From Octopus vulgaris (taxonomy: Eukaryota): a DNA stretch of 64,000 bases. The notes under the pieces are model-generated. The model searched no databases. It saw only the letters and a list, made by a program, of their open reading frames with translations, and was not told the origin of the DNA. The first letter of the stretch is position 1; each line of letters starts with the position of its first letter. The position numbers and the translations under genes are program-made. Where the stretch lies: positions 78,244,001 through 78,308,000 of the forward strand of contig OX597821.1 in assembly GCA_951406725.2 (NCBI GenBank), in the 5' to 3' direction. Positions 32,986-56,344 of this stretch are shown in pieces.

Positions 32986-33056
32986 TTATTTTATTTTATT
33001 TAATTTTCCCGGCGTATACCATACCATGAGGTTATCCTGAAAAAGGAGTTGCTTAT
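32986..33056 (-). CDS. Exon 6 (terminal) of paralog B: (D)KQLLFQDNLMVWYTPGKLNKIK*
   Basis: Phase-1 acceptor aaatag|AT (in-frame alternative tag| at 33062); TAA at 32988-32986; AATAAA-rich downstream. A stronger-looking ttttcag acceptor at 33036 would give an immediate stop, so this exon is uncertain. Confidence 0.5.
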
Positions 33057-33179
33057 CTATTTCTAATAATTATATATATATATATATATATATATATATA
33101 TATATATATACTTATTAATATATATGTGTTTACAAACATACGATTATTAGCATCAACAAAGATTATATATTTTGCATAC

Positions 33180-33289
33180 CTTTCTCCCTCTGCCAATAAA
33201 TTTCGTAGGTTCCACTTTTCTTTTGAGCTTCCATCCAGCCGCCACCAGTAGTAGATGCAGCTTGAAAATCCACACGAAAATGCGGTTCT
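33180..33289 (-). CDS. Exon 5 of paralog B: EPHFRVDFQAASTTGGGWMEAQKKSGTYEIYWQREK
   Basis: tttcag|AGAACC ... GAAAG|gtatgc; 110 bp, phase 2-1, open in the frame required by exon 4; a GC-richer island in AT-rich DNA. Confidence 0.7.
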
Positions 33290-34319
33290 CTGAAACTAAC
33301 ATGTTACAATTGATAAATTTAATAAAATTGATCACAATGAAAAATGTTACAATTATATTGATAACAATCAATTTTGCTTAATTAGACCACTGTCTTTGCC
33401 TTTTCATCTTTGAGATTAGTGAATGCTTGATATCTAGTTTGCTATTCATGATATAGAAGGTATAAATAACGTTTAATTTGTGGCAATCAGATCTTGTTAT
33501 TTAGCTTCAGTTCTATGATCAAAAGGCATTCCAGCTACGGCAAACGTGTCATATTTCTTTCTAAGACAGAATGTATGTCGTATCTCATAAACTACTGATG
33601 GTTGGGTGTTATTTGAGTGGAAAAAATGCTCAGATTATTACAGAAAACAAGATATTCCTTCCACTTCCACTTGTTCTGCTATAAGACGAAATTTCTTTCA
33701 ATTTCTGTCTGCAGATGGGAAAAGAAGACTACGAAAAAGTGCAGTTCTGAAAGGGAAGTTTTAGGAAATGTGTCTGGTATAAATCAATTGTCAGTAAGAG
33801 GACTAGTGAATATATCCAGTGGGCATGATGAGAAGAGACAGATGGAATAGAGACTGAGAGGTGGTTGATCAGTTGTTGTACTAATGTATTAGTATTTGTG
33901 GTATTTGGAACGACAAGGAATTGAGTATCAGTCGCCCTTTGATTGTTAATCTAAAGGTATATGTTTCTGACTTAAAGCTATGGTTTCCTGCTTCATTTCC
34001 TACGTTTTAAAAATATATAAATCCGTTGTACACCATCCCTACATGTTTCTCAGGTGGATGGCTTGAAATGATTTTCGATATTTAGCTTCAACACCTTAAT
34101 TTTCTGAGTTTAAATCTCATCAAACACAACCTATATCTTTCATATTCCGAAGCTGATAGAATAAAGTGCTGGTCAAGTTCTGGTACCGATTTCATACACT
34201 TTTCTCCAACTGAAATTATGGTCCTTGTACTTATCTTAGAAATAATTATAGGACTGTTTAGCAATTGAAATGTCCTTATTAACCTTTTTCAGAAATCTCC
34301 CAACAGGTTTACCATAAAA

Positions 34320-34895
34320 TCCGTGAAATATTCACGGATCCCACTAGTACCAAATTTCTCTCTTATATTGTGTGCAATACTGGATATTCTCAAACGTTCA
34401 CGTATGACTGGAATGATAGACATTTTCAACATGGTTCACATTCTTGCAATTTCGTGTTATGGTAGTCTGTACATTTCAATCTTTTCTAGTTCCTTGTCAC
34501 TTATGCGTGCATCTCCAGGTATTGCAAATTCTATGACCTTGGTTTCCTGTTTTCCTTTATCTACCACAACAATATCTAGTCTCCGAGCCTGAATTAGGGA
34601 GTCACAATGGATTGTAAAATCCCACATTATCATATGTTCTTCGTTCTTGGTGATTCTTTCTGGTTCATGTTCGTACCATTTCCGTGCTCTGTTCAGACCA
34701 AACTTTTCTCTTAGTCCCGAGCGGACGAATTTAGCCAAGTTTTAGTGCATCCTTTTTTAGTGCTCTTGGGTCAGGTGACTACACTCACTCAAAATATGTG
34801 AATTTGTTTCATTTCTGATTCCAAAAGTCCAACAAAGAGGTGATTCATTACTTTTATCTGTTTGGAACTTGGTGTAATCAATTCTCAGAGCTTGT
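34320..34895 (-). mobile_element. R4/Dong-clade LINE, 3' fragment
   Basis: QALR..SPLC..ETNSHILSEC..WYEHEP..MWDFTIHCD..ARRLDIVVVDK..IEFAIPGD..KELEKIEMY. Confidence 0.85.
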
Positions 34896-34896
34896 C

Positions 34897-53020: not shown

Positions 53021-54254
53021 TCTCTCTTCCTCTTTTCATTTGTATATACACGTGCACATGTATGTACATACACACATGTATATAAATAAAGTGCTTGCAT
53101 TGTGTCGCCTTCATAACCACAATGATTATCACTACAACCATCGTTCTACCTATAGCATTTAAAAATGTCAATAATAATAATATGGGTTCCGGTATATTGC
53201 AGCAGATCTTCGTCCTTATTTGTTACATACTCGGTAAGCGTTCTCGTTTCACTCCCGATACAATGGTCTATACTAATGAGTCGTCTGCCACCATTCTTTC
53301 TTTTCATATACAGTCTGTTTGCGTTTGCAGTTAACACTTAATACTATCTTTTGTGCACCCTGCATGAATGGTAATCCAGGGATCATTCTCAGATAACTTT
53401 TAGTTCCTTTACTGGTTCCACAATCACTGGTATTGTAACCGTCTTGAGATTCTATCTTTCATCCAGCTACTGTCCTCATCTGCCCACCGTTCTCTTTCGG
53501 TTTTGTTTTCCGCTTGGGCAGTGAAATTAATAGCAAGGTATTCCTGTTCAGAGGTAACGTTTCCGCCGATCACCGTCTCTGGTTGTATGCTATTTTCGTT
53601 TTCGTATCTTAAGCGCTTCAAGCTCATAGATAGAAATTATCCTGTATTTGTTTTCGAAGTTTCATTTCCGAGCATATCTTCTTTTTATCCATTTAGAATG
53701 AGACCTGTTACATTTTATATTTATTGTTATTATTATTATGTATCTCTTAATTTGTTTAAACACTGTGTGCTCTAAGTTGTCTTGTTCATGCACGAAATAT
53801 ACGGGTGCATGTGTGAATTATATAAACATTACATTTTGTGTAAAGATGAGATTACATATACGATTATTATTTGTACTCAGTGCTTTTTCTGTAGCGACAT
53901 CGCATTCTCGCATATTGCTTCAACTCATGTATAGGTAAGTCGCATCAGTGCTTGTTTGTCTGTGACAATGTGCCTGACAGCACCAATATTTCATAGTTGA
54001 GAAAGATAATTTTTCGGTATCCTGATCTAATTTACATTTGGGACCAATGTTCTTTCATGTTTTGGCTGTTTCTTAAATCCTGTTCGACAATGATGACAGC
54101 TTTAATCTAACTTCGCAAGGAGCTCGCTCGTACATGTCCGTCATGTTTGTTATAATAATAATAATAATAATAATAATAATAATAATAATAATAATAATTA
54201 TTATTATTATTATTATTATTATTATTATTATTATTATTATTATTATTATTATTA

Positions 54255-54740
54255 TTCAGCAGTCTTATCTTTATCACGTTCTTTCACTGTACTACCATGC
54301 GCGGCTCTGTGTGCCTTGGGCATGTGTTGAGGTTTGTAGGAGTGCTGTTATTTTCACTGTATTGAAAGGTCTTTAATGAGGATATGTACGGTGCCTAGTA
54401 TTGTTATTTTCTGCATGCTGTATATATATTCGTAAATACTTGTATTTTGGTTATGTATCGGTCTGAATGTATTTTAGTCATACCTAATGCACCTATCATT
54501 ATAGGGATAGTTTCTACTTTTAGGATGAATATTCGAGTTATCTCTATTGCAAGATCTTTGTATTTTGAGAGATACTCTGTTTCTTTTATAGACACATTGT
54601 CATCTGTTGGGATTGATACATCGATTAGAAGGCATTTTTTTTGGTGTTCACTGTCAAACGTACCCGGCTAATTAGCCTTGATTTCTCTATCAGTTTATGG
54701 TTGCTTTGTCTATTGCTTTTCTGTTTAGAGTATCCCAATA
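54255..54740 (-). mobile_element. R4/Dong 3' fragment in (TAA)n (family of 40990-43390)
   Basis: LIDVSIP.DDN.SIKE.E.LSKYKDL..ETIPIMIGALG; 3' UTR matches 40990-41100. Confidence 0.85.
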
Positions 54741-55581
54741 TTAGTCATGTAAGGGATTTTATCGACAAACTATAAGCTGCAATAGAATCTTTTTTGTGCG
54801 TCAAAAAATGACGAAACGGTTTCAAGGCATTTACGCACCGGAAACTTCGAAGTGAAAGGGAAGTGAAAAAATTCGGAATTATTTTGGCAACTCTAATGGA
54901 ACATAAACATAAATATGAACCCATAAACATGCATTAGGAAGAAGCACCCATCGATTACATCGATTAAAAGGTAAGAATTATGATATCGTCCGTAAATAAA
55001 AATTCCGAACTCTGAAGCAAAGATATATCTGCATTCAACATTTCTTATGATAACATACCAAAGAGTTATAATAAAAACCCTTCCGAAACCTTTGGAAAAT
55101 ATTTTATATCTAGCAAGATACTAAAGAATACCGGATTATCTCATTCACTTCCCATGTCTGCAATGCATGGAACGAATTATCTGAGGAAAAAATATTTCAT
55201 TCTTAGAGACAAATTAATTGCTGTGTTTCAATTAACGTAATTCTTCTCACAGTTTCTAAGGTTGAACATCGAAGCAAATGCTAAGTCAATGAAACACATG
55301 CGTGGTATATCTTCGTGTTTTTGAAGGCCTTCCACAATGTTGGGATCCAGTCCTAGTACAACTAACTAATATTCTAATTGTAGTCGTAGTGTAAACTTGC
55401 ATTTGCAGAAACAAGAAGTGTCAAAATTTAGAAACGTTTAATCTGAAGCATGAGACTGAATAATAATTGTAAAATCGCATAGGTTCATATCCAGATGTAG
55501 ACCGCGTGTTACAATGTTCAGAAGAAATATTTTACCCAACCGCTCCGTTCCATTCAATAGGTTTAAATAACACTCACTAAA

Positions 55582-55810
55582 GCGGCGAGCTGGCAGAAAC
55601 GTTAGCACGCTGGGCGAAATGCGTAGCCGTATTTCGTCTGCCTTTACGTTCTGAGTTTAAATTCCGCCGAGGTCGACTTTGACTTTCATCTTTTCGGGGT
55701 CGATTAAATAAGTACCAGTTACGCACTGGTGTCGATGTAATCGTCTTAATCCCTTCGCCTGTCCTTGTTTGTTCCCTCTGTGTGTAGCCCCTTGTGGGTT
55801 GTAAAGAAAT
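55582..55810 (+). mobile_element. SINE (family 3)
   Basis: Near-complete copy; flanked by TTTAAATAACACTC at about 55562 and 55812 (probable target-site duplication). Confidence 0.85.
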
Positions 55811-56331
55811 ATTTAAATAACACTCTTTAACTAGAAATGATAATACTTTCTTACAAATGTACTAAGACACAGTTTTGTAAAGCGAAATTATATAACCGTC
55901 TGGATAGAATTTCTGTATGTTACTTGAGCTTCTATTATCGTCTCGTTACATACGAAAGGGCAAGTCGAATAGAGATTAGATAGTGGCATTTAGTTCGAGT
56001 GATTGACTTCTTGCCTAGTTACTGCCCTCTGTCTAAAAATAAAGAAATGATTTCTATAATCTATAATGACCAAATAGTTGACATTAGATGAACGAAAAAC
56101 TTTGTAGGATTCGAAAGCGGAACGTAAGATTACAAACGATATTGTTATCAGTCGGTGAATAACTTCTACAAACCCACCGGCTTCTCTTCCCCTCTCTTTG
56201 AAGATGGGAAATGGTAATGGCAAAACAAATGTTATGAAAGCAGAAATCAATGACAGTGTTTTCCGACACTGAATTTTAGCAATTGTGGTTATAATCTCTC
56301 ATTCAATTTCTAATAATATTAATTCACTTAC

Positions 56332-56344
56332 CTTTGAGATTCAT
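56332..56344 (-). CDS. Coding part of exon 1, paralog B (MNLK-G)
   Basis: ATGAATCTCAAAG|gtaagt; conserved in paralog A with one synonymous change. Confidence 0.75.

Follow-up and report, generated by a model that had tools for sequence, protein, structure and literature searches.

A tandemly duplicated Octopus gene predicted to encode a secreted protein with a PAN/Apple-like module and a C-terminal domain of probable reduced fibrinogen-like fold

The closest described relatives of the gene considered here are Octopus proteins that RefSeq lists as "uncharacterized" and UniRef as "Apple domain-containing" (LOC118764386, LOC106867736, LOC106874575 and LOC106876620/621/623/624/625). They have family and architecture in common with it, and their entries carry neither a function nor a domain name. 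Bivalve proteins from Dreissena (DPMN_184871), Ruditapes and Mercenaria contain a homologous C-terminal domain in an identical order, PAN followed by the domain, and homologous domains also occur in multi-copy forms in Branchiostoma and Acanthaster and in sushi-rich proteins. In the literature searched, with subscription journals and supplementary tables, where these genes may be listed with tissue data, outside its scope, neither the family nor the domain was described, six of its LOC identifiers were not mentioned, and no text linked the TLDc and fibrinogen folds. Here we describe a member of this family on the minus strand of a 64,000-nucleotide (nt) stretch of the Octopus vulgaris genome (contig OX597821.1, positions 78,244,001 to 78,308,000), which we call the window. 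We tentatively propose, with slightly less than even confidence, that this six-exon gene of a tandem Octopus family encodes a secreted, non-enzymatic protein that works by binding, in the way of lectins or pattern-recognition proteins, and whose two modules are a PAN/Apple-like one and, behind it, a reduced domain resembling fibrinogen-related domains (FReDs) and TLDc domains.

The coding part of exon 1 (56332..56344, minus strand, as are all exons of this gene) comprises 13 nt with the start codon and a phase-1 GTAAGT donor. The N-terminus it encodes is that of paralogues P0002 and P0021-P0023, and its region is 83% conserved over ~200 nt relative to a tandem duplicate in the window. Exon 2 (50668..50997; 330 nt, phase 1-1) encodes the predicted signal peptide and the PAN/Apple-like domain. 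The C-terminal domain is spread over the remaining exons, with its first strand and a conserved SPIYLYW helix in exon 3 (47508..47599; 92 nt), a conserved FNGTGTNSTSW motif bearing sequons N162 and N167 in exon 4 (43874..44022; 149 nt), variable beta-hairpins in exon 5 (33180..33295; 116 nt), and its last beta-strand (E127-134 in the model) in exon 6 (31327..31376; 50 nt including the stop codon). The resulting coding sequence (13+330+92+149+116+50 = 750 nt, 249 residues) spans 25.0 kb, with all six exons open and all splice sites intact, and the protein is colinear over residues 1-249 with a 249-residue O. bimaculoides protein (44%). Comparison with homologues confirmed exons 1-4.

An earlier note on this DNA had proposed six minus-strand exons with AG/GT ends, totalling 765 nt and giving an open frame of 254 residues. 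Those properties hold, and the last exon has to be replaced. When longer proteins were searched with exon 2, one of 81 candidates proved to be a homologue, the near-orthologous 402-residue O. sinensis protein XP_036361048.1 (LOC118764386; hereafter P0001); the second of its C-terminal domains aligns with exons 3-5 at 92-97%. P0001 departs from the first model twice, at the exon 4/5 junction and at the C-terminal end, where its final 16 residues match window positions 31377-31330 at 100%, 1.6 kb past the stop codon first chosen. We then scored all 167 AG sites within 3 kb after the exon-5 donor against a profile built from 22 sequences of Octopus paralogues, with P0001 left out. The acceptor at 31376 ranked first (287.0 bits; the next, 280.0), reached the profile end (242/242) and had the best pyrimidine tract of the 167 sites (0.85), and its exon (31376-31327) contributed ~12 bits to the match. 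The acceptor first proposed, at 33056, ranked 26th (277.5 bits, pyrimidine tract 0.45), and its exon contributed ~2 bits and ended at 231/242; an open frame of equal length arises by chance at 29 of the 167 sites. We therefore rejected the exon at 32986..33056, which is most likely intron 5 sequence. Taken together, the P0001 C-terminus and the acceptor ranking indicate that the "DNLMVW" motif, once placed at the end of the protein, most likely lies outside it. At the exon 4/5 junction P0001 is two residues longer, which corresponds to the acceptor at 33295, 6 nt upstream of an in-frame second acceptor at 33289 that shortens exon 5 to 110 nt. Both lengths occur among paralogues, the paralogue profile favours the short form by 2.7 bits without deciding between the two, and either acceptor may be used.

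The first C-terminal domain of P0001 lacks its final strand and is joined at compatible phase-1 sites to the exon 3 of this gene. Judged from its sequence, P0001 appears to be a chimera in which another paralogue's PAN and unfinished domain are fused to exons 3-6 of this gene; the fusion may reflect misannotation or read-through splicing. Many other paralogues in the databases are partial models. Three of the database models (P0003, P0008 and P0032) join exon 1 straight to exon 3 and skip the symmetric phase 1-1 exon 2 with its leader and PAN; such forms, if real, would have no signal peptide.

Residues ~17-33 of the corrected protein are hydrophobic (Kyte-Doolittle ~2.0) and are followed by charged residues, with no further long hydrophobic segment downstream. 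On the basis of this N-terminal stretch alone, the protein is predicted to be secreted. The rest of exon 2 holds a C-x3-C-x5-C-x9-C core, in which C67, C71 and C87 are invariant and C77 nearly so across 15 aligned sequences, together with an additional invariant cysteine pair. All invariant PAN columns are present in both the window gene and its tandem duplicate. Exon 2 of the window gene gave no PAN match in Pfam at E<=1; the duplicate scored 14.8 bits (cut-off 21.4) and the best Octopus paralogues reached 18.6 on PAN_1 and 22 on PAN_4 (cut-off 27), all below the cut-offs, and the bivalve relative P0024 passed with 22.7. In the PDB, all eight matches of the Octopus profile were apple domains (best E 0.01). 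Because of the cysteine core, the bivalve score and the PDB matches, we call the exon 2 module PAN/Apple-like.

We searched 1.84 billion representative sequences with a profile made from two sequences of the C-terminal domain and recovered 30 proteins: 23 from three Octopus species, six longer versions of the domain (two from Branchiostoma, one each from Dreissena, Mytilus and Acanthaster, and one sushi-rich protein), and one spurious match with fn3 repeats (P0027), which was dropped. With 23 annotated Octopus proteins among the matches, one of which, P0001, reaches 98% identity across the C-terminal domain, the earlier description of the gene as hidden was too strong. Its proposed layout fared better: the hydrophobic leader is present in the corrected protein, both N-glycosylation sequons were found, and the profile searches support a leader and PAN-like domain followed by a C-terminal domain that has no name and also occurs in other molluscs. 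Squid and cuttlefish proteins were absent from the 30 matches, which is weak evidence at this sensitivity, and 67 pattern matches in viral_contigs included no relatives. Altogether, the domain ranges over molluscs, amphioxus and echinoderms, and probably cnidarians. In other animals its relatives join it to ZP, EGF, sushi and D8C modules, of the extracellular recognition or matrix type.

Within this range the Octopus domains stand apart. They form one branch in a phylogenetic tree (100/100; five cluster mates were excluded from the tree and from identity counts), and an Octopus-only profile matched a non-Octopus profile at 97% (E 4e-11). At ~132 residues, the Octopus form is ~50 residues shorter than the non-Octopus form (~185); it has neither the 30-residue insert after the first strand nor the conserved cysteine-pair loop. 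Four cysteines are found in all five bivalve proteins, against none or one in the Octopus domains; 14 of the 18 Octopus domains are cysteine-free and that of the window gene has one. C70 and C172, one in each domain of the protein, are cysteines that most paralogues lack, and C172 also occurs in the O. sinensis protein. Only hydrophobic positions of the C-terminal domain are invariant and there are no catalytic residues, which argues against an enzyme. Between paralogues, identity is 0.50 over the first 58 residues and 0.26 over the remainder. Of the 18 Octopus domains, 17 contain 1-5 sequons. N162 and N167 belong to the motif with the strongest conservation, at which Asp is common among relatives, so the sequons alone do not prove glycosylation. 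Pfam and PDB sequence searches with the domain gave no credible match: Fibrinogen_C, COLFI and TLD were not matched in Pfam, and no FReD appeared in PDB profile searches. Pfam matches to RavZ_C, VHP, DUF736 and DUF7748 lay far below cut-off and were set aside as chance.

A second copy in the window, together with duplicated non-coding blocks, bears out the tandem family proposed in the earlier note. The exon 1 of this copy (3900..3912, minus strand) has an intact splice site, and its exon 2 (1347..1676, minus strand) is open with intact AG/GT sites and is 77% identical in amino acids and 88% in nucleotides; its remaining exons would fall beyond the left edge of the window. Blocks at 1249..14052 match 50571-64000 at 71-83% identity (the 11854-14052 block being microsatellite-rich), and this non-coding match indicates tandem duplication with a unit of ~49-52 kb. 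In O. bimaculoides there are at least 11 loci, eight of them on one 97.8-Mb sequence and five with near-consecutive LOC numbers. For the two exon 2 copies, the nonsynonymous (dN) and synonymous (dS) divergences are 0.144 and 0.097, a ratio of 1.48 (bootstrap 0.70-4.27), which is not different from 1; the comparison shows no trace of purifying selection and does not prove positive selection. A third exon-1-like sequence at 27129-27141 on the plus strand, with ATG and a GTAAGT donor, is similar at ~80% over 62 nt. It has no plus-strand exon 2 match inside the window and is possibly an inverted remnant.

To what fold does the C-terminal domain belong? We generated two three-dimensional models, both of this domain, and neither matched anything in Foldseek at E<=0.001. 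In structural comparison the top whole-length matches were FReDs and TLDc domains only, separated by a gap from unrelated folds, and the named neighbours in the Atlas all belong to the fibrinogen/COLFI clan. The domain is therefore probably of a reduced fibrinogen-like (FReD/TLDc) fold, the resemblance of the models being weak. Residue 1 of the model aligns at fibrinogen gamma 188-189, a start with which the N-terminal A subdomain would be absent; upstream the protein has PAN in its place. The protein plausibly works in the way of FReD-type recognition proteins, but against this assignment weigh the sequence, the A subdomain and the cysteines, none of which places the domain among the FReDs. 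Z never exceeded 5.5, and TLDc ties with FReD as neighbour of both models, which hints at a shared fold. It is thus conceivable, if on balance unlikely, that the domain has a fold of its own or is related to TLDc, the likeness to FReDs being merely a common sheet arrangement. Such a reading would suit the lack of a link at sequence level, but it has to reckon with the gap and the Atlas neighbours, and the extracellular partner domains suit a FReD rather than the cytosolic TLDc.

Under the binding-protein reading, the N-terminal half of the domain, which is conserved, would act as a scaffold and the hypervariable C-terminal hairpins as a paralogue-specific binding face; by the alignment ranges, these hairpins would take the place of the ligand-binding P subdomain of FReDs. 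Duplication and divergence could then have produced a repertoire whose members recognise different glycans or surface proteins, probably of microbial or mucosal origin. Alternatively, the protein could be a secreted structural or matrix component of mucus, sucker cuticle or egg case, with both modules serving self-assembly or adhesion. The partner modules of its relatives, the frequent sequons and the absence of catalytic residues are all consistent with this, but we consider it rather unlikely, as repeats, low-complexity tracts and cross-linking motifs are absent from the sequence, and rapid divergence limited to one domain half suits a binding repertoire better. We are more doubtful still of a salivary, reproductive or chemosensory ligand-binding or inhibitor protein, secreted and without an immune role, in which an enlarged open beta-sheet would offer a pocket or protein-binding face: the barrel matches, to avidin, FABP and pericyclase, were discarded as partial, covering only ~residues 32-129 and scoring below full-length FReDs, and the ancestral form of the domain matches FReD and TLDc only. 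Finally, selection on the window copy could be relaxed, so that this duplicate is decaying and has no separate function. The dN/dS ratio, the two unusual cysteines and the partial database models would fit, but six open exons with intact splice sites across 25 kb, the near-identity of the C-terminal domain in O. sinensis and the retention of every invariant PAN column in both copies make this very improbable. A bolder version of the binding-protein reading makes the unnamed domain a third branch, pan-metazoan in range, of the fibrinogen/TLDc fold. In Octopus this branch would have lost its disulfides and loops, been combined with PAN and been tandem-amplified under diversifying selection into a set of secreted proteins for recognition, private to Octopus, that replaces lectin families missing from cephalopods. 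We think it unlikely that this version holds as a whole.

Of the introns, described in the earlier note as filled with transposons, intron 4 carries broken fragments of a long interspersed nuclear element (LINE) type (35248..43389, minus strand; RVT_1 E 8e-31 and 1.5e-10, zf-RVT E 2.8e-5), and at 37214-38627 a LINE end is directly duplicated (~710 nt, 88%). Elsewhere in the window, a sequence resembling LINE open reading frame 2 (17164-20289, plus strand) has endonuclease (571 residues) and RVT_1 (469 residues) frames in the same frame with one stop codon between, and exon 1 of the paralogue is preceded by a fragmented LINE with RVT_1 matches (4561-7766, minus strand). Palindromes 100-460 nt long, centred on microsatellites or resembling miniature inverted-repeat transposable elements, occur at 22380-22823, 25212-25590, 11788-12186, 1930-2030 and 51167-51336.

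This analysis replaces the last exon of the gene and points to one RefSeq model as a likely chimera. The C-terminal domain is widespread and has no Pfam model, and its placement beside FReD and TLDc provides a first testable functional idea and a possible link between the two folds. Since cephalopods are reported to have strikingly few C-type lectins (PMC10140915), a secreted family that is hypervariable and has expanded in Octopus offers a concrete candidate for a cephalopod recognition repertoire and is worth testing as such. If the fold link and the binding role fail, an ordinary uncharacterised tandem family is left.

How, then, does this protein compare with known systems? TLDc proteins (PF07534: Oxr1, NCOA7, TBC1D24, mEAK7, Rtc5) are, by their PDB titles, cytosolic V-ATPase binders; identity is 4-8%, and the octopus protein differs from them in its predicted leader, its extracellular-type PAN and the lack of a TLD sequence-profile match. 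Fibrinogen-related domains (PF00147: intelectin-1, ficolins, ANGPTL3, FGL1 and the molluscan fibrinogen-related proteins, FREPs) likewise show no sequence match. Unlike them, the Octopus domain has no P-subdomain disulfide, and its partner is PAN instead of an immunoglobulin-superfamily domain, coiled coil or collagen. Relative to its own homologues in bivalves, amphioxus and starfish, it has lost the conserved C-x2-D-x-G-W loop. With PAN/Apple domains (PF00024, PF14295: prekallikrein, factor XI, apicomplexan microneme proteins), the exon 2 module has the C-x3-C-x5-C-x9-C core in common, while its scores fall under the Pfam cut-offs and it carries the extra invariant cysteine pair.
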